A stretch of DNA of 11,429 nucleotides, from UHGV virus genome UHGV-1560016; one strand, written 5' to 3'. The translations under genes were made by a program, and so were the position numbers. Origin of the DNA: a virus. Under the pieces are notes generated by a model. It was not told the origin of the DNA, searched no databases, and saw only the letters and a list, made by a program, of their open reading frames with translations. The stretch's first letter is position 1, and every line of letters begins with the position of its first letter. This document shows positions 1-11,429 of the stretch, in pieces.

Positions 1-1
1 T

Positions 2-238
2 GATGAAAAAGAACTTGATAATGCAATTAATAAAATCATCGTAACGTCGCTCTTTTCCTGTCTCAGCGACACTCAGCAAAAACAGTTCTACGAATCGGCT
101 TTCAACATGATCGAGCGTTGTTGTTTCTGCGATGCCGACGAGTTACCTGAAAAAATCAGGAAACAGTTGGCTGATGCTCTTCGAGTGCGACTTTCTGACC
201 AATTTTCTGAAATGTACTCTCCGAATTTGGACAAATAG
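2..238 (+). CDS. Hypothetical protein, 3' part only (5' end lies outside the window); reads ...NMIERCCFCDADELPEKIRKQLADALRVRLSDQFSEMYSPNLDK*
   Basis: Hand translation of frame 2 is open from the window edge to TAG at 236-238. It is absent from the ORF track, presumably because it is 5'-truncated with no long M-initiated stretch. It lies in AT-rich DNA and overlaps the antisense ORF 156-431 by 83 nt, so only one of the two may be real. Confidence 0.3.
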   Translation, partial: DEKELDNAINKIIVTSLFSCLSDTQQKQFYESAFNMIERCCFCDADELPEKIRKQLADALRVRLSDQFSEMYSPNLDK

Positions 239-431
239 AAAAAGGCCATTTCCATTCAGGGTCTGATGGAAATACTTCAGCCTGTTCCAAAGCACGGCGT
301 AAAGAGAACACAACTCCAGCCATAATCTGATGTTTCCCATTGGTCCAGCTATCGCCGCTCTGATCTACAGGGGCGGCTATGTCGTATGACCAAACGACTT
401 CACAGTTATTGTTTAAAATCTGGACTTTCAT
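156..431 (-). CDS. Hypothetical small protein (about 91 aa from the ATG at 431; the ORF track extends it to 473)
   Basis: ATG at 431-429 (minus) is preceded by AGGTG with a 6-nt spacing. It sits downstream of the leftward promoter at 558-585. No family recognised. Overlaps the + strand partial ORF at its 3' end and contains the inverted repeat 248-273. Confidence 0.4.
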   Translation of the reverse strand: MKVQILNNNCEVVWSYDIAAPVDQSGDSWTNGKHQIMAGVVFSLRRALEQAEVFPSDPEWKWPFSICPNSESTFQKIGQKVALEEHQPTVS

Positions 432-557
432 TTCATACACCTGCTTTAACATGAGTGCCTGGTGGCACAACATGACTCAACGAATCATCCTGGACTTCAT
501 ATGCCCCAGGCGGCTACTTCGTGGGCGTCCTGCCTGTTCGTTGTTTCGCTTGGGTAC

Positions 558-585
558 ATTATGTATCTCAAAGGTACATTGTCAA
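558..585 (-). promoter_or_regulatory. Candidate sigma70 promoter directing leftward transcription (PL-like): -35 TTGACA, 16-nt spacer, -10 CATAAT, overlapped by operator-like repeats
   Basis: Minus-strand TTGACA is the complement of 580-585 and CATAAT the complement of 558-563, with a 16-nt spacer (564-579). GGTACATT is directly repeated at 553-560 and 573-580. The palindrome TACAT-T-ATGTA at 555-565 overlaps the -10. Confidence 0.45.
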
Positions 586-586
586 G

Positions 587-613
587 TATAAAAAAACCTG
601 CCGAAGCAGGTTC
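587..613 (-). terminator. Intrinsic terminator of the repressor gene
   Basis: A 7-bp stem (595-601 AACCTGC pairing 606-612 GCAGGTT) with a 4-nt loop reads on the minus strand as stem, UUCG loop, stem, then a U-run (complement of the A-run at 590-596). It lies 11 nt downstream of the repressor stop at 625-627. Confidence 0.6.
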
Positions 614-624
614 ATAAACATTGA

Positions 625-1299
625 TTAGGCTTTGATTTTGTATCTTCTTGGTTTTCCTGAGAAAATCACTGTGCCAATTATAGAGCAATTACCGTTGATC
701 TTAATGTAAGGCTCAGGCCAGTTTGGGTTTAACGCTTTGAGATAACGCTGTGTCCCATCTTCTATCAACCTTTTGAAGGTGGTTTCGCCTGTATCGTGCA
801 TCAATGCAATAACGTCGTCACCGTGGCAGGCAGGTACTTCAGGATCGACAAAAATCATGTCTCCCGGGCGGTACTCATCAATCATTGAATCACCTATCAC
901 CCGCAAGATATAAGTCATTTCCCCACAGGGTACAGGGCAGGGATACGTTTCTGCTGTGCTCAAATCAACCTCAGAATATCCAACTTCTTTCCATGCTCCG
1001 GCCTGTACCCATGATATGACAGGGACTAATGTGATTTGTTTATTAGTGATTGAAACATCAGGTTTTTTTGTGATGTTCGTTGTCTGGTGTTCTTGATCGA
1101 GCCATCCGACAGGCAGGTCGAAACATTTTTCGATGTGTCGTGCCATGCTGTCACCGATATTTTTAGTAGCACCATCCCCCATAAACCTGCTGGTCTGGGT
1201 TGGCTCGCGATCAATCATAGTGGCAAAGGAAGAATTCCCGCCAACACCATCTCTCAGTTTTCTGGCGTTAGACCGCCGGATGTCATGGATTGTTTTCAT
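625..1299 (-). CDS. Phage CI/LexA-like repressor with C-terminal S24 autopeptidase domain (224 aa)
   Basis: The C-terminal half carries the S24 signature GDSM (IGDSMIDEY, nucleophile Ser) and a downstream KRL (TFKRLIEDG, general-base Lys), with LexA-like spacing. The N-terminal ~70 aa are basic and typical of a DNA-binding domain. It is divergent from a Cro-like gene and followed by its own terminator. The 224-aa size matches what I recall for e14 CohE (unverified). Confidence 0.88.
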   Translation of the reverse strand: MKTIHDIRRSNARKLRDGVGGNSSFATMIDREPTQTSRFMGDGATKNIGDSMARHIEKCFDLPVGWLDQEHQTTNITKKPDVSITNKQITLVPVISWVQAGAWKEVGYSEVDLSTAETYPCPVPCGEMTYILRVIGDSMIDEYRPGDMIFVDPEVPACHGDDVIALMHDTGETTFKRLIEDGTQRYLKALNPNWPEPYIKINGNCSIIGTVIFSGKPRRYKIKA

Positions 1300-1315
1300 A
1301 ACGAAATTAAAACCC

Positions 1316-1334
1316 TTGTACCGTTAAGGTACAA
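1316..1334. promoter_or_regulatory. Operator candidate: perfect 7-5-7 inverted repeat TTGTACC-GTTAA-GGTACAA
   Basis: The arms 1316-1322 and 1328-1334 are exact reverse complements. It lies 17 bp upstream of the repressor start codon in the divergent intergenic region. Confidence 0.5.
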
Positions 1335-1339
1335 GTATC

Positions 1340-1367
1340 TTGAAGGTTCATTTCAATCATGTAATAT
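1340..1367 (+). promoter_or_regulatory. Candidate rightward promoter (PR-like) for the Cro-like gene: -35 TTGAAG, 16-nt spacer, -10 TAATAT
   Basis: TTGAAG at 1340-1345 and TAATAT at 1362-1367 with a 16-nt spacer. GGAGG RBS at 1375-1379 and ATG at 1390. Confidence 0.45.
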
Positions 1368-1387
1368 GTACACCGGAGGTACATATT
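1363..1387. promoter_or_regulatory. Operator candidate: 9-7-9 perfect inverted repeat AATATGTAC-ACCGGAG-GTACATATT overlapping the -10 and RBS of the Cro-like gene
   Basis: The arms 1363-1371 and 1379-1387 are exact reverse complements (checked base by base). It shares the GTACA core with the repeats at 553-580 and 1316-1334. Confidence 0.55.
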
Positions 1388-1389
1388 GT

Positions 1390-1704
1390 ATGAAAGCGTA
1401 TTGGGACTCTTTAACCAAAGAACAGCAGGGCGAGTTGGCCGGAAAAGTTGGCTCAACACCTGGCTACTTACGGCTGGTTTTCAATGGCTATAAAAAAGCC
1501 AGTTTTGTGCTGGCTAAAAAACTTGAGCAATGCACGTCAGGTGCAATTACGAAATCTGACTTAAGACCGGATACCCGCCAGCAGGATGATCTGAACAGTC
1601 TGGATGAACTGCAAACGCTGGCGATTGATGTTGATTATCTCGAGCCCGGTAACGGGCCTGACGGCGATATCGAACATCACACCGAAATAACCCTTCCTTC
1701 CTGA
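1390..1704 (+). CDS. Cro/YdaS-like helix-turn-helix regulator (104 aa) with an acidic C-terminal extension
   Basis: ATG at 1390 with GGAGG 10 nt upstream. The N-terminal segment LAGKVGSTPGYLRLVFNGYKKASFVLAKKLEQCTSG resembles phage Cro/YdaS-type HTH proteins. It is divergent from the repressor. The longer track ORF 1087-1704 overlaps the repressor antisense and is not the true start. Confidence 0.7.
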   Translation: MKAYWDSLTKEQQGELAGKVGSTPGYLRLVFNGYKKASFVLAKKLEQCTSGAITKSDLRPDTRQQDDLNSLDELQTLAIDVDYLEPGNGPDGDIEHHTEITLPS

Positions 1705-1875
1705 GGATCCTCATGTTTGTCAAACCTGTTAAAGGGCGTTCCTGACCCTGCCCGCGGCGACCTTTTGCCCGCCGAAGGGCGAAATGTTGACGAGAACAAC
1801 TACTGGCTGCGCCGTGAAGTAGCGGGTGATATCCGGCGCGTGAATAAAAAGGTGAATACCGATGACGAGCTTTAA
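1705..1875 (+). other. Start-less open frame (56 codons) ending at a TAA that overlaps the sheath start; possible 3' remnant of the ancestral gene preceding the sheath gene
   Basis: Frame 1 is open from just after the Cro-like TGA (1702-1704) to TAA at 1873-1875 with no ATG. The only candidate start is TTG at 1717 with no RBS. Its stop overlaps the sheath ATG (1862) in the manner of translationally coupled phage genes. Confidence 0.25.
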
Positions 1876-3355
1876 CACCATTCCGTCGAATACGCTGGTT
1901 CCGCTGTTTTATGCGGAAATGGATAATCAGGCGGCGAATACTGCACAGGACAGCGGAGCATCGCTGCTGATTGGTCATGCCAATAACGGTGCAGAGATTG
2001 TTGCCAACAGTCTGGTACTGATGCCGTCGGCAGACTATGCACGCCAGATTTGTGGTGCGGGAAGTCAGCTGGCGCGTATGGTCGAGGCTTATCGCCAGAC
2101 CGACCCGTTTGGCGAGCTATATGTGATTGCCGTTCCTGAATCCACGGGCGCGGCGGCAACGGTTACGCTGACGGTGACCGGCGCGGCAACCGAAACCGGC
2201 ACGGTGAATGTTTATGTGGGACGTACCCGCGTGCAGGCACCGGTGACCAACGGCGATAACGTTGCGACGATTGCCAGCAGTATCCAGGATGCCATCAATG
2301 CCGTTCCGACCCTGCCGTTTACTGCCTCATCTTCGGCAGGCGTGGTCACACTGACCGCGCGTCATAAGGGGCTTTGCGGGAATGAAATTCCTGTCAGCCT
2401 CAATTACTACGGCTTTGGTGGGGGCGAAGTGCTGCCAGCGGGCGTACAGATTGCCGTGGCGACGGGTACCGCCGGAACGGGCGCTCCGGTTCTCACCGGC
2501 GCGGTGGCTGCAATGGCGGATGAGCCGTTTGATTATATCGGCCTGCCGTTCAACGACACAGCCTCCGTTAACACGCTGGTGACCGAGATGAACGATACCA
2601 GCGGTCGCTGGAGCTATGCGCGTCAGCTGTATGGTCATGTGTATACGGCAAAGATCGGCACGCTGTCAGAACTGGTGACCGCAGGTGACCAGTTTAACCA
2701 GCAGCACATTACCCTGGCGGGATACGAAAAAGAGACCCAGACGCCTGCCGACGAGCTGGCGGCAAGCCGTACCGCCCGCGCAGCGGTGTTTATCCGCAAC
2801 GATCCGGCACGTCCCACGCAGACCGGTGAGCTGGTGGGTATGCTGCCTGCGCCGAAGGGGAAACGGTTCACGATGACCGAACAACAGACCCTGCTGTCTC
2901 ATGGCGTGGCAACGGCGTGTGTCGAAAGCGGGGTGCTGCGCATTCAGCGTGATGTCACCACGTACAGGAAAAACGCTTACGGTGTTGCGGATAACAGCTA
3001 CCTCGACAGCGAGACGCTGCATACCAGCGCGTATGTGCTGCGCAAACTGAAATCCGTCATTACCAGTAAGTACGGGCGTCACAAGCTTGCCAGCGACGGT
3101 ACCCGCTTTGGTCCCGGTCAGGCGATTGTCACACCGGCGGTGATCAAAGGGGAACTGCTGGCAACCTACCGTCAGCTTGAGCGTGCGGGGATCGTGGAAA
3201 ACTACGAACTGTTTAAGCAGTACCTGGTTGTGGAGCGTGATGCCAGCGATCCGAACCGCCTGAACACGCTGTTCCCGCCTGACTATGTTAACCAGTTGCG
3301 TGTCTTTGCCGTGGTTAACCAGTTCCGTCTTCAGTATTCAGAGGAGTCTGCATAA
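1862..3355 (+). CDS. Contractile tail sheath protein (Mu gpL-like, 497 aa)
   Basis: A 497-aa ORF immediately upstream of, and coupled to, a 118-aa tube gene (TAATG overlap at 3353-3357), followed by chaperone and tape measure genes. This is the size and order of myovirus sheath genes. GAGGAG RBS for the next gene is embedded in its 3' end. Confidence 0.85.
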   Translation: MTSFNTIPSNTLVPLFYAEMDNQAANTAQDSGASLLIGHANNGAEIVANSLVLMPSADYARQICGAGSQLARMVEAYRQTDPFGELYVIAVPESTGAAATVTLTVTGAATETGTVNVYVGRTRVQAPVTNGDNVATIASSIQDAINAVPTLPFTASSSAGVVTLTARHKGLCGNEIPVSLNYYGFGGGEVLPAGVQIAVATGTAGTGAPVLTGAVAAMADEPFDYIGLPFNDTASVNTLVTEMNDTSGRWSYARQLYGHVYTAKIGTLSELVTAGDQFNQQHITLAGYEKETQTPADELAASRTARAAVFIRNDPARPTQTGELVGMLPAPKGKRFTMTEQQTLLSHGVATACVESGVLRIQRDVTTYRKNAYGVADNSYLDSETLHTSAYVLRKLKSVITSKYGRHKLASDGTRFGPGQAIVTPAVIKGELLATYRQLERAGIVENYELFKQYLVVERDASDPNRLNTLFPPDYVNQLRVFAVVNQFRLQYSEESA

Positions 3356-3711
3356 TGGCCCGTATCGGGGGAACCTGTTATTTCAAAATTGACGGTCAGC
3401 AGCTATCGCTGACCGGCGGCATTGAGGTGCCCATGAACAGGACGGTCAATGATGACATCATCGGCCTGGACGGTTCAGTGGACCGCAAGGAAACTCACCG
3501 TGCGCCCTATGTCAAAGGGACCTTCAAGGTGCCGAAGAATTTTCCGGTGAACAAAATCACCTCGTCTGATGAGATGACCATCACTGCCGAGCTGGCGAAC
3601 GGTCAGGTCTATGTACTGTCGTCTGCCTGGCTGCACGGCGAAGCGAACCATAATGCCGAAGAAGGCACGGTTGATCTTGAGTTCCACGGTGAAGAAGGGG
3701 ATTACCAGTGA
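3355..3711 (+). CDS. Tail tube protein (Mu gpM-like, 118 aa)
   Basis: ATG at 3355 overlaps the sheath stop, with GAGGAG 8 nt upstream. Size and position between sheath and chaperone/tape measure fit a tube protein. Confidence 0.82.
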   Translation: MARIGGTCYFKIDGQQLSLTGGIEVPMNRTVNDDIIGLDGSVDRKETHRAPYVKGTFKVPKNFPVNKITSSDEMTITAELANGQVYVLSSAWLHGEANHNAEEGTVDLEFHGEEGDYQ

Positions 3712-4031
3712 TTGAGCTTGTACTTAAAAAACCGATCATCGCCCACAAAGAAACACTGCATGTGCTGGAAATACGTGAGCCTACGTATGACGAGATTGAG
3801 GCGCTGGGGTTCCCTTTCTCTGTTTCACCTGATGGTGGTATGAAAATGGACAGTCAGGTAGCGCTGAAATATATCCCGCTTCTGGCCGGGATCCCGCGCT
3901 CGTCTGCAGCGCAGATGACGAAGCTGGATATTTTCAAGGCAGGCATGATTGTAATGCGTTTTTTTACCGGCTTGGAGACGGAAGAGACCTCCGGAAGCGA
4001 TTCTACAATGTCGCGTGGTTCTGGAAATTAA
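3708..4031 (+). CDS. Tail assembly chaperone, short form (107 aa, GTG start)
   Basis: GTG at 3708 overlaps the tube TGA (GTGA). It sits between tube and tape measure and contains a T7 slippery run leading into a -1 frame extension. Confidence 0.72.
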   Translation: MIELVLKKPIIAHKETLHVLEIREPTYDEIEALGFPFSVSPDGGMKMDSQVALKYIPLLAGIPRSSAAQMTKLDIFKAGMIVMRFFTGLETEETSGSDSTMSRGSGN

Positions 4032-4123
4032 ACCCCCTTGAACTTCGCCGGACGGCTATTTCCCACTTTGCTGATCTGGAGGCAGAGGCCGTCCGTATAA
4101 ATGAGGAGATGAAGCATGGCTGA
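3708..4123 (+). CDS. Tail assembly chaperone, long form made by programmed -1 frameshift at TTTTTTT (3959-3965); predicted about 139 aa
   Basis: Zero-frame codons cgT-TTT-TTT-acc give a T_TTT_TTT heptamer. The -1 frame is open from 3833 (after TGA at 3830-3832) to TGA at 4121-4123, which overlaps the tape-measure ATG (4116). This is the G/GT-type arrangement conserved in tailed phages. Confidence 0.6.
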
Positions 4124-6023
4124 TAATTTTCAGCTGAAAGCCATCATCACCGCCGTTGACAGGCTGTCCGGCCCGCTTAAAGGTATGCAGCGTCAGCTTA
4201 AGGGGTTTCAGAAAGAAGTCTCCAGCCTTGCTCTGGGCGCTGCCGGGGCGGGTACTGCAATAATGGGGGCACTGGCACTCCCTGTAAAATCAGCCATCAC
4301 CCTTGAATCGAAGATGGCTGATGTCCGCAAAGTGGTAGACGGTCTGGATACGCCGGATGCGTTTAAGGCCATGACGGAGCAGGTACGCGCTTTGTCTACT
4401 GAGCTTCCCATGTCTGCAGACGGGATCGCGGAAATTGTGGCGGCTGGCGGTCAGGCCGGGATTGCACGTGATGAACTGATGCAGTTTGCCACTGATGCGG
4501 TGAAGATGGGCGTGGCCTTTGATACCACGGCTGAAGAGTCCGGGCAGATGATGGCCCAGTGGCGTACTGCGTTTAATATGACGCAGGATGAAGTGGCCGG
4601 GCTGGCTGACAAAATCAACTACCTTGGTAATACCGGCCCGGCGAATGCGAAGAAAATCTCCGATATTGTTACGCGTATTGGTCCTTTAGGTGGTGTTGCA
4701 GGTGTGGCTTCCGGCGAAATCGCGGCAATGGGGGCAACCATTGCCGGGATGGGCGTGGAGTCAGAAATTGCCGCCACAGGGATCAAGAACTTCATGCTTT
4801 CCCTGACCGCGGGAAATTCCGCGACAAAATCGCAGAAACAGGCATTACGTTTTCTGCGGATCAATCCGAAGAAATTAGCTGCTGATATGCAGAAAGATGC
4901 CCGGGGAACCATGCTGTCTGTACTGGATGCGATGGCTAAAGTGCCCAAAGAAAAACAGGCAGCTGTGCTGAATGCCCTGTTCGGGAAAGAGTCTCTGGGC
5001 GCGATAGCACCTCTGCTGACTAACCTTGATTTGTTGCGTACCAACTTCAGGCGGGTTGCGGATTCCCAGCAGTATGGCAGTTCGATGCAGAAGGAATATG
5101 CTTCGAGGGCAGCGACGACGGAAAACCAGCTTTTACTTCTGCAAAATCAACTTGATGCCATTTCTTCCACGCTGGGGGAAACGTTTCTTCCTGAGGTTAA
5201 TGATGGTCTTGAAGAGGTAAAACCGCTCCTTGAGGAAGTGAGAACGTTTGTCCGTGAAAACCCGGAGCTCGTTAAGACCATTGCTAAAATCGGTCTGGCC
5301 TTACTGACGGTGGGAGCCGCTGCAGGCTCTTTGTCCAGAATTATGAAAGTTCTCGGCGGTGTGATGAATATGACGCCTGCTAAGGGGCTGATTGCTCTTC
5401 TGGTTGGTGGCGCTTACCTCATTATTGATAACTGGGAAACCGTAGGTCCTGTCATAAAAAAAGTCTGGCACGTGGTGGATGAAACGGCGCAGGCGATGGG
5501 GGGATGGGAAACTGTTCTGAAAGCGATTGCCCTGTTTATGGCAACCAAATGGGTTGCTGACGTTACCAAATCCATTACCGCAGTGACCAGAGAGATGCGT
5601 ACGCTGGGGAAGGTATCGGCAGAAACGGGATTGATGGGGAAAGGCCGCGGCTTTATCGGGAAGGCCGGGGTATATGGTTTTCTGGGAACCCTGATGTATG
5701 AGCCGGTTAAAGATACTCTGGAAAGTGTTGTTCCTGAAGATACGGTTAACTGGCTGGATAATAAAGGGCTGTTTCTGGCTTCAGACTGGACGCCTTTTTT
5801 TGATCGTAAAGAGTACGAGCAGTATCAGGCCAGCCTGAGTCAGTACAAACCCAATGTTCCGCTGTTGAATCCATCTTCTTCCATGACACAGCACAGCGAG
5901 CTGAAAGTCACGTTCGAGAATGCTCCGCCAGGTATGAAGATAATTGATGTACCGGGCAAAGCCGATCCCCTGATGAAAATCACGCACGATGTGGGGTATT
6001 CCCCTTTTCGTTTTCCACGATAA
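4116..6023 (+). CDS. Tail tape measure protein (635 aa)
   Basis: Largest ORF in the operon, directly after the frameshifted chaperone pair. It has Gly/Ala-rich hydrophobic segments (e.g. LALGAAGAGTAIMGALALPV, GPLGGVAGVASGEIAAMGATIAGMGV) typical of tape measure proteins. Confidence 0.88.
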   Translation: MADNFQLKAIITAVDRLSGPLKGMQRQLKGFQKEVSSLALGAAGAGTAIMGALALPVKSAITLESKMADVRKVVDGLDTPDAFKAMTEQVRALSTELPMSADGIAEIVAAGGQAGIARDELMQFATDAVKMGVAFDTTAEESGQMMAQWRTAFNMTQDEVAGLADKINYLGNTGPANAKKISDIVTRIGPLGGVAGVASGEIAAMGATIAGMGVESEIAATGIKNFMLSLTAGNSATKSQKQALRFLRINPKKLAADMQKDARGTMLSVLDAMAKVPKEKQAAVLNALFGKESLGAIAPLLTNLDLLRTNFRRVADSQQYGSSMQKEYASRAATTENQLLLLQNQLDAISSTLGETFLPEVNDGLEEVKPLLEEVRTFVRENPELVKTIAKIGLALLTVGAAAGSLSRIMKVLGGVMNMTPAKGLIALLVGGAYLIIDNWETVGPVIKKVWHVVDETAQAMGGWETVLKAIALFMATKWVADVTKSITAVTREMRTLGKVSAETGLMGKGRGFIGKAGVYGFLGTLMYEPVKDTLESVVPEDTVNWLDNKGLFLASDWTPFFDRKEYEQYQASLSQYKPNVPLLNPSSSMTQHSELKVTFENAPPGMKIIDVPGKADPLMKITHDVGYSPFRFPR

Positions 6024-6047
6024 CGCAGTCCTTTTTGAGGTCAGTCT

Positions 6048-7424
6048 ATGGATTTATCCTCATTTCCCACCCGACCTTCATTACTTTCGTCGTCTTCAGG
6101 CTGGCGTGACAGACTTCAGGACGCGTCATTTCGCGGCGTGCCGTTTAAGGTTGAAGAAGAAAGTGCGGGAACCGGTCGCCGTGTGGAAACACATGAATAC
6201 CCGAACCGCGACAAACCCTATACCGAAGACCTGGGGAAAATCACTTTTCGCTCGTCCATCACGGCTTATGTGGTGGGAGATGACTGCTTTGACCAGCGCG
6301 ATCGCCTGATTGACGCGCTGAATAAACCCGGTCCCGGCACGCTTGTCCATCCGACATACGGTGAGCTGAAAGTCTGTGTTGACGGAGAAGTTCGGGTCAG
6401 CACATCGAAGAGTGAAGGGCGTATTGTCCGCTTTGACCTGAAGTTTGTCGAAGCGGGAGAACTCTCTTACCCCACTTCAGGTGCGGCGACGGCGCAGACG
6501 CTGATGTCATCCTGTTCTGCACTGGATGACTGCATCAGTGACAGCTTCAGAGGTTTCAGTATCGATGGCGTGGCGGATTTCGTGCAGAACGACGTCGTTG
6601 GTAATGTCAGCACAATGCTTGGGTATGTTTCTGATGCGATGAAAGTGGTGGATTCTGCCGTATCGGATGCTGCCAGGCTGTTGCAGGGGGATATCTCGGT
6701 ACTTCTGCCGCCACCATCGTCAGGCAAAAATCTCGTTGAGCAGGTGCAGAAAATGTGGCGTACCGGGAAACGCCTTTATGGTAACGCCAGCGACCTGGTC
6801 ACCATGATCAAAACGCTTTCCGGTGTCAGCCTCGGCAGCGATCTGCAACCGCGCGGCGTCTGGAAAACGGACAGTAAAACCACCGCCACGGCTACGCAGC
6901 AGCGTAATGTGGTTGCCAGCACCCTTCGTACGACCGCAATCAGTGAAGCGGCGTATGCCGTCACCCGATTGCCTGCGCCAACAACTTCCGCGGTGATGCA
7001 GAATTCCGCAGTGGGGCAGGCAACAACACCTGCGCAGAGCACTGGCTGGCCTTCCGTCACGCATCCGGCACTGAACAATGCACCGGCGGTGAAAAACACG
7101 GTTGACCTGCCGACGTGGGAAGAACTGACTGACATTCGCGACACACTGAATACGGCAATTGATAAGGAGTTGTCCCGTACAACCAGTGATGCGCTGTTTC
7201 TGGCGCTGCGCCGGGTGAAAGCAGATCTGAATGCGGATATCAACACGCGCCTTGAACAGTCTGCACGGATCATTCAGCGCACACCGGATGAGGTTTTACC
7301 CGCGCTGGTGCTGGCGGCGACCTGGTTTGATAACGCGGCGCGTGACGCGGACATTATCCGGCGTAATGCCATTACGCATCCCGGCTTTGTGCCGGTGATC
7401 CCTCTGAAGGTGCCAGTGCAATGA
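6048..7424 (+). CDS. Mu gp43/N-like protein (DNA circularization protein N family; baseplate hub component), 458 aa
   Basis: ATG at 6048 with GAGG 7 nt upstream. The N-terminal region (FRGVPFKVEEE...GRRVETHEYPNRDKPYTEDLG) matches my recollection of the DNA_circ_N domain of Mu N-like proteins. Position right after the tape measure fits. Confidence 0.75.
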   Translation: MDLSSFPTRPSLLSSSSGWRDRLQDASFRGVPFKVEEESAGTGRRVETHEYPNRDKPYTEDLGKITFRSSITAYVVGDDCFDQRDRLIDALNKPGPGTLVHPTYGELKVCVDGEVRVSTSKSEGRIVRFDLKFVEAGELSYPTSGAATAQTLMSSCSALDDCISDSFRGFSIDGVADFVQNDVVGNVSTMLGYVSDAMKVVDSAVSDAARLLQGDISVLLPPPSSGKNLVEQVQKMWRTGKRLYGNASDLVTMIKTLSGVSLGSDLQPRGVWKTDSKTTATATQQRNVVASTLRTTAISEAAYAVTRLPAPTTSAVMQNSAVGQATTPAQSTGWPSVTHPALNNAPAVKNTVDLPTWEELTDIRDTLNTAIDKELSRTTSDALFLALRRVKADLNADINTRLEQSARIIQRTPDEVLPALVLAATWFDNAARDADIIRRNAITHPGFVPVIPLKVPVQ

Positions 7425-8500
7425 ACGACAATGTCACGCTACGGGTAAATGGCCGGGAGTGGAATGGCTGGACATCGGTGCGCATCGGTGCCGGTATTGA
7501 ACGGCTGGCGCGGGATTTCAGTGTGGAGATCACCCGCCAGTGGCCGGGAGATGAGGGTATCACCACGCTTCAGCCGCGCATTAGAAACGGTTCAAAAGTG
7601 GAAGTGCTGATTGGTGATGAGCTGGTGATCACCGGCTGGGTGGAGGCGACTCCCGTTCGTTACGATGCCCGTTCGGTCAGCACCGGTATTGCCGGACGTA
7701 GTCTGACGGCTGACCTGATTGACTGTGCAGCCGAACCGACACAGTTTAACGGACGCTCGCTGGTGCAGATTGCGCAGGCGCTTGCTGCGCCTTTCGGCAT
7801 TGAGGTGGTGAACAGCGGTGCGCCGTCGGGTGTTATTCCTGATGTTCAGCCTGATCACGGTGAAACGGTGATTGAGGTAATCAACAAAATACTCGGTCAG
7901 CAGCAGGCACTGGCTTACGACGACCCGCACGGCAGGCTGGTGATTGGCGGTATTGGCTCAACGCGGGCACATACCGCGCTGGTACTTGGGGAAAACATCC
8001 TTTCCTGCGATACGGAGAAGAGTATCCGGGAGCGGTTTTCTGTTTACCAGGTGGCGGGGCAGCGTGCCGGAAACGACGATGATTTCGGTGAGGCCACCAC
8101 CACCGCGCTGCGGGCCCGCACAGAGGACGCATTTATTGCCCGTTACCGTCCGATGTATATCAGGCAGACAGGGCAGGCCACGGGGGCAGGCTGTATTGCG
8201 CGTGCTGACTTTGAAGCCCGACAACGGGCGGCGCGGACGGATGAAACCACTTATGTGGTGCAGGGCTGGCGACAGGGTAACGGTACGCTGTGGCAGCCCA
8301 ACCAGCGGGTGATTGTCTTCGATCCGGTCTGTAGTTTCGACAATACCGAACTGCTTGTTTCGGAAGTCACGTTTACTCAGGACCAGAACGGCACCCTGAC
8401 GGAAATCCGTGTCGGCCCGCCTGATGCTTATCTGCCTGAACCCGAAGATCCCGGCGTGCGGAAAAAGAAAAAAGCCAGAGTACAGGAGGACCCGTTCTGA
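7421..8500 (+). CDS. Baseplate hub protein (Mu gp44/P-like), 359 aa
   Basis: ATG overlaps the stop of the preceding gene (ATGA at 7421-7424). Size and position between the N-like and spike genes fit the Mu-like order. Confidence 0.75.
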   Translation: MNDNVTLRVNGREWNGWTSVRIGAGIERLARDFSVEITRQWPGDEGITTLQPRIRNGSKVEVLIGDELVITGWVEATPVRYDARSVSTGIAGRSLTADLIDCAAEPTQFNGRSLVQIAQALAAPFGIEVVNSGAPSGVIPDVQPDHGETVIEVINKILGQQQALAYDDPHGRLVIGGIGSTRAHTALVLGENILSCDTEKSIRERFSVYQVAGQRAGNDDDFGEATTTALRARTEDAFIARYRPMYIRQTGQATGAGCIARADFEARQRAARTDETTYVVQGWRQGNGTLWQPNQRVIVFDPVCSFDNTELLVSEVTFTQDQNGTLTEIRVGPPDAYLPEPEDPGVRKKKKARVQEDPF

Positions 8501-9048
8501 TGAGGGCGATTGAAGCCATGCAGCGACAACTCCTCGGCCTGATTGGGCGGGCAGTGGTGAAAAGCATCAGTGCCGCCACGAAATGTCAGACCGTGGATGT
8601 GTCCCTGATTGCCGGTGAACCCAAAGCCGGGGTTGAACATCTTGAACCCTACGGTTTTACCGCAAGGGCAAACAGCGGTGCGGAAGCGGTGGTGTTGTTT
8701 CCGGATGGCGACCGTTCTCATGCGGTGGTTGTTACGGTGTCGGACCGGCGCTACCGCCTGAAAGGGCTGCAGACGGGTGAGGTGGCTGTCTATGACGATC
8801 AGGGGCAGTCCGTGACGCTGGCCCGGGAGGGGATCGTGGTGGACGGTGCAGGTAAAACGATCACGTTTCGCAATGCGCCTAAGGCACGTTTTGAAATGGA
8901 CCTGGAAGTGACCGGACAGGTGAAAGACCTGTGCGACTCCACCGGCACCACCATGTCAGCGATGCGGCTTGCCTATAACGGGCATCGTCACAGAGAGAAC
9001 GGTCAGGGCAGTAACACCGACAAACCTGATAAAGCGATGGAGGCATGA
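8500..9048 (+). CDS. Baseplate central spike / assembly protein V-like (Mu gp45-like), 182 aa
   Basis: TGATG overlap with the upstream gene and AGGAGG at 8484-8489. Size and position fit gp45/gpV-type spike proteins. Confidence 0.75.
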   Translation: MRAIEAMQRQLLGLIGRAVVKSISAATKCQTVDVSLIAGEPKAGVEHLEPYGFTARANSGAEAVVLFPDGDRSHAVVVTVSDRRYRLKGLQTGEVAVYDDQGQSVTLAREGIVVDGAGKTITFRNAPKARFEMDLEVTGQVKDLCDSTGTTMSAMRLAYNGHRHRENGQGSNTDKPDKAMEA

Positions 9049-9473
9049 TGGAACTGTGGCTGACGGTGAACGGTAAACGCACCTGCGCCAGCGCACAACT
9101 GGATCCGCTGACCCGCGCCGTGGTGATTTCCCTGTTTACCTGGCGGCGGGCGGAGCCTGATGACAACGCCGACGTCCCGATGGGATGGTGGGGGGATACC
9201 TGGCCTGCGGTACAGAATGACCGTTACGGCTCCCGACTGTGGCTGCTTCAGCGCAGCAAACTGACCAATCAGCTGGTGCAGACGGTAAGGGGGTATATCC
9301 GCGAATGCCTGCAATGGATGATTGATGACGGCGTGGTGTCCCGTATTGATCTGGATATCCGCCGCACCGGGATTAATGAACTGGGTAACAGTATCACTCT
9401 CTGGCGTCGTGACGGACCGGTAATGATTTCTTTTGATGATCTGTGGAGTGCGATAACGCATGGCGGACAGTGA
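9045..9473 (+). CDS. Baseplate protein of the GP46 family (Mu gp46-like, T4 gp25-like wedge), 142 aa
   Basis: ATGATG start overlaps the upstream stop (start may be 9045 or 9048), with GGAGG at 9039-9043. Size and order fit. Confidence 0.75.
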   Translation: MMELWLTVNGKRTCASAQLDPLTRAVVISLFTWRRAEPDDNADVPMGWWGDTWPAVQNDRYGSRLWLLQRSKLTNQLVQTVRGYIRECLQWMIDDGVVSRIDLDIRRTGINELGNSITLWRRDGPVMISFDDLWSAITHGGQ

Positions 9474-10518
9474 ATTTCAGCGCCCGACGCTGGCAGAAAA
9501 TATCAGTATGCTCCGTAACGATTTATTCGCCAGGCTGGACGTCAGCGACACGCTCCGGCGCATGGATGAAGACGTGCGGGCAAAGGTGTATGCGGCGGCG
9601 CTGCATACGGTTTACGGGTACATCGATTATCTGGCAATGAACATGCTGCCTGACCTGTGCGATGAGTCCTGGCTGGCGCGACATGCTGCGATGAAACGGT
9701 GTCCGCGCAAGGGGGCCACGGCTGCCAGCGGGTATATGCGCTGGGAAGGTGTCAGCGATGGCCTGAAGGTGACCGCCGGGAGTGTTATTCAGCGCGATGA
9801 CCTGGTTCAGTACACGGCAACTGCCGATGCAACCAGCTCCGGTGGTGTCCTGCGCGTGCCGATCGCCTGCTCAAGTTCAGGCGCGGTCGGTAACGCTGAC
9901 GACGGTACGTCATTAATCCTGGTCACGCCGGTGAATGGTCTGCCGTCTTCCGGTGTGGCTGACACCCTGACAGGCGGATTTGATACTGAAGATCTGGAAA
10001 CGTGGCGCGCCCGCATCATTGAGCGGTATTACTGGACGCCGCAGGGCGGGGCTGACGTGGACTATGTCGTCTGGGCTAAAGAAGTGCCCGGCATTACCCG
10101 CGCATGGACATACCGTCACTGGATGGGAACGGGAACTGTCGGTGTGATGATTGCCAGCAGTGACCTGATTAATCCCATTCCGGAAGAATCAACGGAAACG
10201 GCGGCAAGACAACACATTGAGCCACTGGCCCCGGTGGCAGGCTCTGATTTGTATGTATTCAGGCCGGTGGCGCATAAAGTGGATTTTCATATCCGCGTGA
10301 CGCCGGACACACCGGAAATACGGGCTGCCATCACCGCCGAGTTGCGTTCGTTCCTGCTGCGTGATGGTTATCCGCAGGGAGAACTGAAGGTATCGCGTAT
10401 CAGTGAGGCGATTTCCGGTGCGAACGGGGAATACAGCCATCAGTTGCTTGCCCCGGCGGACAATATCTCCATTGCAAAAAATGAACTGGCGGTTCTGGGG
10501 ACGATTTCATGGACGTGA
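9460..10518 (+). CDS. Baseplate J-like protein (Mu gp47-like), 352 aa
   Basis: Start overlaps the upstream gene by 14 nt. Size and order match baseplate J-family proteins in Mu-like and P2-like tails. Confidence 0.8.
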
Positions 10519-11093
10519 CAAACGATGATTACATCCGCCTGTTATCGGCACTGTTGCCGCCCGGTCCTGCATGGTCAGCCAGCGATCCGGCGATTGCCGG
10601 TGCGGCACCTTCATTAACCCGCGTTCATCAGCGTGCGGATGCCCTGATGCGGGAGCTGGATCCGCGCACCACCACTGAACTGATAAACCGCTGGGAGCGT
10701 CTGTGCGGTCTGCCGGATGAATGTATTCCCGCAGGGACACAGACCCTTCGCCAGCGTCAGCAACGACTGGATGCGAAGGTTAACCTGGCGGGCGGCATCA
10801 ACGAGGATTTTTACCTTGCACAGCTTGCTGCCCTGGGCAGACCAGACGCTACCATCACGCGATACGACAAAAGCACGTTCACCTGCTCATCGGCCTGTAC
10901 TGACGCGGTGAATGCGCCGGAATGGCGGTATTACTGGCAGGTCAACATGCCAGCCGCCACCAACACCACCTGGATGACATGTGGCGATCCCTGTGATTCC
11001 GCACTGCGTATCTGGGGCGACACCGTTGTCGAGTGCGTGCTTAACAAACTCTGCCCGTCGCATACCTACGTAATTTTTAAATATCCGGAGTAA
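10509..11093 (+). CDS. Baseplate/tail protein, Mu gp48-like (DUF2313/YmfQ-like), 194 aa
   Basis: Start overlaps the upstream gene by 10 nt. Size and position (after baseplate J, before tail fibre) fit. Confidence 0.75.
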
Positions 11094-11096
11094 TCC

Positions 11097-11429
11097 ATGC
11101 ATCGTATAGACACGAAAACCGCGCAGAAGGATAAGTTCGGCGCGGGTAAGAACGGTTTTACCCGTGGTAACCCCCAGACTGGCACGCCTGCCACCGATCT
11201 GGATGATGACTACTTTGACATGTTGCAGGAAGAACTTTGTAGCGTGGTGGAGGCATCCGGTGCCAGTCTGGAGAAGGCGCGGCACGACCAGCTGCTTACC
11301 GCGCTTCGTGCGCTGCTGTTAAGCCGCAAGAATCCGTTTGGCGATATCAAATCGGATGGCACGGTGAAAACGGCTCTCGAAAACCTTGGTTTGGGAGAAG
11401 CCAGATATATCATTCAGCGAGGAGCTAAT
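11097..11429 (+). CDS. Tail fibre protein, N-terminal part only (3' end lies outside the window)
   Basis: ATG at 11097 with GGAG at 11087-11090. The frame is open for 111 codons to the window end. It follows the gp48-like gene, where Mu-like and P2-like modules place the fibre gene. Confidence 0.7.

Follow-up and report, generated by a model that had tools for sequence, protein, structure and literature searches.

The subject of this report is an 11,429-nucleotide stretch of viral DNA, UHGV virus genome UHGV-1560016 (the whole stretch is called 'the window' below), in which the ymfK/ymfT immunity switch of a lambdoid prophage leads directly into a Mu-like contractile tail cluster. We conclude that the window is very probably the left two-thirds of a defective Escherichia coli prophage of the SfV/SfIV/e14 group that has undergone a single 18,905-bp deletion, and that this element is a recent and decaying remnant. 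Members of this group combine regulation of the lambdoid kind with an HK97-type head and a contractile tail like that of Mu. A first-pass annotation of the window had proposed either a domesticated phage-tail bacteriocin (tailocin) under a cleavable repressor or a prophage that lost its central modules by deletion. The second proposal can now be demonstrated base by base, as the loss of 18,905 bp relative to an intact prophage at a defined junction.

A single deletion fuses the immunity switch to the tail genes

In a megablast comparison, the window falls into two blocks that share positions 1556-1573. The first block (1-1573) matches the ymfK/ymfT region of an E. coli D1 prophage (NZ_CP010134.1) at 100% identity, and the second (1556-11400) matches the tail region of that same prophage, which sits next to tRNA-Thr/proA, at 99.9%. 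The D1 genes located between the two blocks comprise ymfL, replication and nin-type genes and the Q antiterminator; a lysis cassette of holin, GH24 lysozyme and an Rz1-like gene; packaging and head genes (HNH, small and large terminase, portal, protease and capsid); and finally connectors, a neck protein and the tail terminator. A three-way alignment combined with a coordinate calculation puts the loss from the window, relative to the D1 prophage, at exactly 18,905 bp.

The crossover occurred within the sequence GATA at positions 1570-1573, a 4-bp exact microhomology that is embedded in an imperfect match (1556-1573) reading CTGACTtAAGACcgGATA on the ymfT side and CTGACTgAAGACGATA on the terminator side. 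The deletion extends from the last five sense codons and stop codon of ymfT to approximately codon 143 of the tail-terminator gene. As a result, the reading frame runs on from YmfT residues 1-61 into the 43 C-terminal residues of the tail terminator, giving a 104-residue fusion protein in which the native last five residues of YmfT (IYPKD) have been replaced. PHROG family phrog_35 matches residues 1-64 of this protein and phrog_5122 matches residues 60-103. The terminator domain PF23840 spans residues 3-135 of the 186-residue D1 protein and is thus wholly lost in the window. The sole Pfam match to the fusion protein is YdaS at E = 5.7e-4, which falls under the curated cut-off of that family. 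The description of this open reading frame as a Cro-like gene ending at 1704 holds for its Cro/YdaS-like helix-turn-helix, but the gene is a chimera whose last 43 codons derive from the tail terminator.

The interval between 1704 and the start of the sheath gene at 1862 is occupied by a gene for a DUF2635 (Mu gp38-like) protein, which carries a 5-bp deletion (GGTCA) between positions 1737 and 1738 that introduces a stop after 10 codons. This lesion is present only in the window and in a near-identical contig, L006, which matches the window at 99.99% identity over 11,401 bases; the gene is intact in loci L003, L004 and L007, in the D1 prophage and in phage SfIV. A TTG codon at 1717, in the downstream DUF2635 frame, could in principle restart translation to yield a 52-residue product.

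The prophage ancestry of the window is further evident from isolated phages. The tail block of SfIV, an isolated Shigella phage, is 98.1% identical over 9.85 kb, and its terminase, portal, capsid and connector genes lie directly before that block. Virion-essential modules have been lost through a definable lesion, and the lost modules are found nowhere else in the element.

The junction recurs in independent samples and the complete element has no head genes

To establish how widely the junction is distributed, complete RefSeq E. coli genomes were searched by megablast with window positions 1-2200 and 1400-1740. The junction is present in 0 of 5,426 such genomes, 208 of which carry at least 80% of the window. 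Likewise, the 29-mer that spans the junction, CTTAAGACCGGATACCCGCCAGCAGGATG, has no match in a set of one genome per species or in JGI metagenome contigs. The exact 104-residue fusion protein is encoded on 16 contigs, from human-gut metagenome assemblies and public sequencing runs put together with different assemblers, and the cluster to which this protein belongs has just one other member besides it, with an E. coli record from NCBI making up one of the two. Two junction-bearing GenBank chromosomes, CP058796.1 and CM129609.1, came to light through the gp43-like tail protein; they are represented by the GenBank-derived loci L018 and L022, respectively. CP058796.1 differs by one synonymous change beside the junction.

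Given this distribution, we consider the chance negligible that the architecture reflects an assembly artefact, or a rearranged complete prophage with head genes just outside the window. The window apparently comes from a short metagenome contig, as its match to L006 suggests, and contigs of this kind can be chimeric. However, the junction is found in independent samples, with different assemblers and in two finished chromosomes, and a 4-bp overlap cannot cause a k-mer misjoin. We therefore rejected an assembly chimera. A complete but rearranged prophage was likewise rejected, because L003, L018 and L022 have neither head nor terminase genes in their flanks, which consist of the integrase, pin, IS1 and chromosomal genes. 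A phage satellite also appears to be excluded: packaging in SfI and SfV relies on a cos site (PMC3636060), whose expected place beside the terminase genes falls within the deleted segment.

The complete element can be assembled from these loci. Its left part, in L003, reads proA, tRNA-Thr(CGT), integrase, five small genes, ymfK, the fusion gene and DUF2635, such that this junction-bearing copy has its own integrase beside the tRNA-Thr(CGT)/proA attachment site, beyond the left end of the window. The genes from sheath through gp48 form the middle. Its right part, in L018 and L022, consists of the fibre gene, tfa, inverted tfa and fibre fragments, pin, a GIY-YIG gene, IS1 and corA. The whole-element gene lists from L003, L018 and L022 include no head, terminase, portal, capsid, holin, endolysin or spanin genes. 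Capsid, terminase and portal genes of the same element, whose presence next to the window had been named by the first-pass annotation as grounds for abandoning its proposal, do not flank the element. In L003, the flanking chromosomal sequence matches E. coli at 100% identity.

The right-hand flank of pin, GIY-YIG, IS1, corA, ysgD and IS1 is common to D1 and both deleted chromosomes. This shared flank points to a recent deletion within one lineage. The GIY-YIG gene is LEM-3-like, and corA and ysgD are bracketed by the two IS1 copies (2546-5757 in L002, the D1 locus; 18832-21377 in L018 and L022). Just outside the element's own integrase, CP058796.1 carries a second integrase gene (L018 1-2006; 439 residues, Arm-DNA-bind_3), and ARAGORN found no tRNA in that interval. 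This arrangement suggests a tandem insertion at the thrW site in the strain concerned.

A predicted SOS-responsive repressor next to the tail genes

YmfK appears well equipped to serve as a RecA-cleavable repressor. Its Peptidase_S24 match covers residues 93-212, and residues 1-92 match the regulator families phrog_12107 and phrog_5736. The translation contains a QAG cleavage-site motif, the serine of a GDSM motif and the lysine of a TFKRL motif, the last of which aligns with TFKKL of λ cI in an alignment to λ cI C-terminal domain structures that covers the lysine motif. By these features, the protein possesses the N-terminal DNA-binding domain, Ala-Gly site and Ser/Lys dyad that define λ cI/LexA-type repressors. 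The gene is annotated as ymfK, LexA family, in both E. coli D1 and the e14 element of K-12. Downstream of ymfK, a terminator-like hairpin with a T-run (594-613, minus strand) lies just past its stop codon, and an open reading frame of unknown function (156-473, minus strand) matches phrog_3195 at E = 8e-70.

Two palindromes are present between the divergent ymfK and ymfT genes, and their location suggests that both are operator-like. The first (1316-1334; TGTACC-N5-GGTACA) is a perfect inverted repeat of CTTGTACC and GGTACAAG with 5 nucleotides between its arms. The second (1367-1383; TGTACA-N5-GGTACA) has a half-site in common with the first and overlaps a candidate -10 region. The corresponding pR-like promoter (1340-1367, plus strand) combines a -35 element TTGAAG, a 16-nucleotide spacer and a -10 element TAATAT. 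It was read by eye and is not among the output of a consensus promoter scanner, but it is a plausible rightward early promoter. No convincing plus-strand terminator is evident between 1390 and 1862. Only two weak hairpins were found there, both within ymfT coding sequence, and the stretch that holds them is 100% identical in the intact D1 prophage.

A single illegitimate recombination event at the 4-bp microhomology removed the 18,905 bp. It spared the integrase arm, the switch with its cI-like and Cro-like genes, the tail genes beginning with DUF2635 and ending in the invertible segment of the fibre, and pin. We propose the following consequences. The tail genes would have lost their normal Q-dependent late transcription. 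Because the Q antiterminator and the upstream end of the late region were both deleted, the early promoter would be the only one left upstream of the tail genes, which now would lie directly downstream of it with no convincing terminator between. Under SOS conditions, RecA-stimulated self-cleavage of YmfK would allow transcription of the YmfT-terminator fusion gene and read-through into the tail genes. Since the element has no lysis cassette, and probably makes no capped tail, at most intracellular tail material would be expected, rather than released killing particles. Such a cryptic prophage may be kept because it is harmless and still confers immunity, while it continues to decay.

Gene content and variation of the tail cluster

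Gene identities within the window were assigned from Pfam and PHROG matches (Table 1). These agree with the order and coordinates reported previously for the repressor, the Cro-like reading frame and the genes from sheath to fibre, and they reveal no head, packaging, replication or lysis genes between the switch and the tail cluster within the window. The tail operon had been called complete. Although all genes from sheath to gp48 are present, the tail terminator and the neck and tail-completion genes that open the module in intact relatives are gone. Similarly, the genes do follow canonical order as far as the tail fibre, but the fibre gene itself is cut by the end of the window.

Table 1. 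Features of the window and corresponding sites in related loci. Positions refer to the window unless a locus is named.
Feature	Position	Strand	Evidence or remarks
ymfK, λ cI-like repressor with C-terminal S24 self-cleaving domain	625-1299	-	Peptidase_S24 E = 1.5e-26; phrog_4 transcriptional repressor E = 1.7e-49; 224 residues
Chimeric gene, YmfT (Cro-like) plus tail-terminator end	1390-1704	+	ATG at 1390; phrog_35, phrog_5122
DUF2635 (Mu gp38-like), broken	1713-1875	+	Intact 55-residue version: PF10948 E = 1.2e-15
Tail sheath	1862-3355	+	Phage_sheath_1, _1C, _domII; phrog_165 E = 4e-230
Tail tube	3355-3711	+	PF10618 E = 3.3e-33; phrog_185
Tail assembly chaperone	3708-4031, likely -1 frameshift extension to 4123	+	PF10109
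Tape measure protein	4116-6023	+	PF10145 E = 2.2e-42; phrog_28 E = 7.8e-143
Mu gp43-like tail/'DNA circularisation' protein (DNA_circ_N)	6048-7424	+	PF07157 E = 3.3e-34; phrog_184
Mu gp44/P-like baseplate hub	7421-8500	+	GpP-like_1st, Gp44-like_2nd, GpP_4th; phrog_177
Mu gp45-like baseplate assembly/spike protein	8500-9048	+	PF06890 E = 1.5e-24
Mu gp46-like baseplate wedge protein	9048-9473	+	PF07409 E = 5.8e-33; phrog_180
Baseplate J/Mu gp47-like protein	9460-10518	+	PF04865 E = 6.5e-53
Mu gp48/YmfQ-like baseplate protein	10509-11093	+	PF10076 E = 9.4e-27; phrog_203
Tail-fibre gene, constant N-terminal part and first 28 bases of variable part	11097-11429	+	phrog_1396 E = 2.2e-54
Pin-type (hix/gix/pix-like) crossover site, 26 bp	11374-11399		End of constant part of fibre gene
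Partner crossover sites	L018 17195-17220; L023 (K-12 e14) 15606-15631		
'Mini-e14' loci with the YmfT-terminator junction and the second deletion	L007 10324-10500; L008 3783-3959; L009 8066-8242		

Two gene boundaries deserve comment. The chaperone gene contains a slippery T_TTT_TTT at 3959-3965, from which the -1 frame is open to a stop at 4121-4123 that overlaps the start of the tape-measure gene. A programmed -1 frameshift, the usual arrangement for tail chaperones, is therefore likely. For the gp46-like gene, gene calls in related loci use the start that gives a 141-residue protein.

Throughout the 9.8-kb tail region, each deleted copy differs from D1 by only 0 to 2 substitutions, outside a recombination tract in L004. 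Apart from that tract, what sets deleted copies alone apart is the DUF2635 frameshift together with three amino acid replacements, S>L in the sheath, G>S in gp44 and K>E in gp45, with no synonymous change. These are too few for a formal test, and they offer no hint of purifying selection. In L004, ten clustered substitutions, nine of them synonymous, fall within gp47 and gp48 (window equivalent 10332-10610), and the rest of its tail region is nearly identical to the other copies. This cluster looks like a short recombination tract acquired from another prophage.

The variable end of the fibre gene appears to remain under the control of an active Pin inversion switch. In related loci, three alternative fibre C-termini directly follow the 26-bp Pin-type site, and an inverted partner site adjoins pin about 1.87 kb downstream in L018, L022, D1 and K-12 e14. 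Moreover, the 1.87-kb fibre segment is in opposite orientations in the two deletion-bearing chromosomal loci, L018 and L022.

A probable single origin of the junction and the arguments over a tailocin

Several observations weigh against a simple account of the element as a young and inert remnant, and we consider them together. First, all large tail genes are intact, with lengths equal to those of phage SfIV, and a functional tail cluster would be compatible with the sequence. Second, the repressor looks cleavable and the deletion appears to place the tail genes under it, which is the regulatory logic of a tailocin. Third, the losses that accompany the deletion have precedents among functional systems: F-type pyocin clusters exist without a terminator, so loss of the terminator is not decisive (bioRxiv 10.1101/2021.02.16.431561), and some extracellular contractile-injection loci have no lysis cassette, so neither is its loss (PMC10598620). 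Lysis could also be provided by co-resident prophages. Fourth, the same junction occurs in three backgrounds, namely at thrW with an SfV-type integrase, with an e14-type left arm and sheath (L010), and within e14 at icd (L007-L009), and ymfK differs at 10-11 sites (about 1%) across them. The junction would thus seem to have persisted long enough to recombine between prophages, and not to be the private lesion of one clone.

The three backgrounds might alternatively be explained if the junction arises repeatedly by programmed or hot-spot recombination. An identical junction next to an SfV-type integrase, next to an e14-type left arm and at icd, together with the divergence of the ymfK alleles, is what such a process could produce. 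We nevertheless find this explanation scarcely credible. There are only 4 bp of exact homology at the crossover, whereas the D1 prophage contains 846 direct-repeat pairs of at least 10 bp, spaced 5-30 kb apart, that would be better substrates. Furthermore, the junction does not resemble the Pin crossover site, and positions 1374-1819 around it are identical in 10 of the 10 contigs compared. Such identity is expected for one origin accompanied by recombination in the flanks, and we infer that the junction arose once and was then exchanged between related resident prophages.

The icd copies also reveal what has followed in one lineage. In these e14-type elements, a second deletion of 10,444 bp runs from the 3' end of DUF2635 into a tfa gene, and all tail genes are gone ('mini-e14' in Table 1).

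The first-pass proposal of a domesticated tailocin under a cleavable repressor finds no support in the complete element. The structural set does include sheath, tube, chaperone, tape measure, hub, spike, wedge and fibre with no head genes, but the terminator has been lost and DUF2635 is frameshifted in the window's copy; a terminator is not universal among tailocins (10.1101/2021.02.16.431561). R-tailocin clusters normally encode holin, endolysin and spanins (PMC10598620). In the parent prophage, the genes for the holin, the GH24 lysozyme and the Rz-like protein all fall within the deleted segment, and the complete elements of CP058796.1 and CM129609.1 contain neither a lysis cassette nor a tail terminator. 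An SOS-type regulator does seem to be in place, in that the S24 repressor gene is divergent from the promoter predicted to lead into the tail genes. As for a module of the PrtR/PrtN kind, no gene other than the YmfT-terminator fusion separates the repressor from the tail genes; the fusion matches no pyocin-activator family at E values up to 0.01, and no PrtN-type activator was found. Finally, nothing indicates a fixed locus under selection: the junction's absence from the complete RefSeq genomes, the two-member cluster of its fusion protein, the 0 to 2 substitutions per copy, the near-identity to the intact prophage of D1, whose right flank is shared, the absence of synonymous changes among the private ones, and the copy that has lost every tail gene all speak against domestication.

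There is a small chance that the element is nonetheless a functional or nascent R-type tailocin, in which one step created a headless and non-replicating tail cluster under an SOS-cleavable repressor and lysis is provided by co-induced prophages. Such an interpretation draws on the intact sheath to gp48 genes in canonical order, the retention of the cleavage site and Ser/Lys dyad in the repressor, and the absence of a strong plus-strand terminator between the early promoter and the sheath gene. It also draws on the Pin-invertible fibre segment, found in both orientations among deleted copies, on the recruitment of SfV-type tails to tailocin function in Pseudomonas (PMC4542187), and on the ability of F-type pyocins to dispense with a tail terminator (10.1101/2021.02.16.431561). 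Set against this are the full element's want of any holin, endolysin or spanin gene, the lost terminator domain, the rarity of the junction and its fusion protein, and the character of the post-deletion changes, which consist of one frameshift and three replacements. Because the tail region differs from that of an intact prophage by only 0 to 2 substitutions, its intactness reflects youth and not selection, and one lineage bearing the same junction has discarded the entire tail cluster.

We assign an even smaller chance to a stronger version of this idea, which would make the deletion the birth of a tailocin. Here, the deletion would have stripped away all lethal or virion-specific functions and, in the same step, have moved a complete SfV-type tail operon from Q-dependent control to direct control by an SOS-cleavable repressor. 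E. coli with the junction would then produce contractile tails upon DNA damage, with release through lysis by co-resident prophages, retargeting through the Pin-inverted fibres and selected spread into three backgrounds. If this were true, a single deletion would suffice to turn a temperate phage into an SOS-controlled tail weapon, and the first step of tailocin evolution would be experimentally accessible in E. coli. Even then, a tailocin built on an SfV-type tail with a prtR-prtN-equivalent module is already documented (PMC4542187, PMC4684702). A decaying deletion remnant is the account of the window that we favor.

Comparison with related phages, prophages and tailocins

The pairing of a Mu-like tail with an S24 repressor had been viewed as unusual. 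SfI, SfV and e14 belong to a lambdoid group that integrates at tRNA-thrW next to proA (PMC3636060), and SfV has a Mu-like tail (PMC4542187). Because lambdoid phages of the SfV group carry Mu-like tails, a λ-type S24 repressor alongside such a tail is what one ordinarily finds in this family. It would not be an unusual configuration for a tailocin either, as an R-type syringacin with an SfV-type tail already has a prtR-prtN-type regulatory module (PMC4684702). The tail modules of SfIV, SfV, SfI and SfII are 97-98% identical to that of the window, and these phages share with the element the thrW/proA site and the same union of lambdoid regulation with a Mu-like tail. Both they and the D1 prophage carry the 18.9 kb of replication-to-terminator genes that the window lacks, and the window element cannot form virions.

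The closest relative in kind is the cryptic prophage e14 of K-12, located at icd. It possesses the same ymfK/ymfT switch, the same tail-end genes (jayE/baseplate J, ymfQ and stf/tfa) and the same Pin-invertible fibre segment with identical 26-bp sites. Like the window element, e14 is defective through internal deletions, as indicated by its chimeric gene ymfN ('chimeric replication protein/phage terminase') and its beeE and jayE fragments, and some e14 copies at icd contain the very junction described here (L007-L009). However, ymfL and ymfM survive in K-12 e14, where other deletions have taken almost the entire set of tail genes, whereas the window element has kept the whole tail cluster, has lost everything from ymfT to the terminator in one step, and resides at thrW/proA with an SfV-type integrase (L003).

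Among established tailocins, the R-type syringacin of Pseudomonas syringae B728a (the Rp4 tailocin) offers a parallel, with an SfV/Mu-type contractile tail and no head or replication genes (PMC4542187). Its rtsB-rtsA regulatory module is equivalent to prtR-prtN (PMC4684702). In contrast to the window element, the R-syringacin is conserved at trpE-trpG across strains, includes lysis functions and an activator, and has demonstrated killing activity (PMC4542187, PMC4684702). The E. coli element is both recent and rare; it has neither lysis cassette nor activator and takes the form of a prophage with an integrase at its attachment site.

The R-type pyocins of Pseudomonas aeruginosa likewise resemble the window in having a headless contractile tail, and they are expressed upon RecA-stimulated cleavage of an S24-type repressor (PMC4684702, PMC10598620). 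Their tails are P2-like, whereas that of the window is Mu-like. PrtR acts indirectly by repressing the activator gene prtN (PMC4684702), but for YmfK the direct target would be the promoter from which the tail genes are read. Pyocin clusters also encode holin, lysin and spanins (PMC10598620), and the window element has no lysis cassette.

Implications

For this prophage family, these elements provide a base-resolved chain of lambdoid prophage decay. An intact prophage of the D1 type was reduced by the 18.9-kb deletion to its switch and tail, and a further 10.4-kb deletion produced the switch-only mini-e14. There are also two consequences for genome annotation. The 104-residue 'hypothetical protein' encoded at the junction is a deletion chimera and not a new regulator, and an architecture in which an immunity switch adjoins a tail cluster should not, on that feature alone, be scored as a tailocin.

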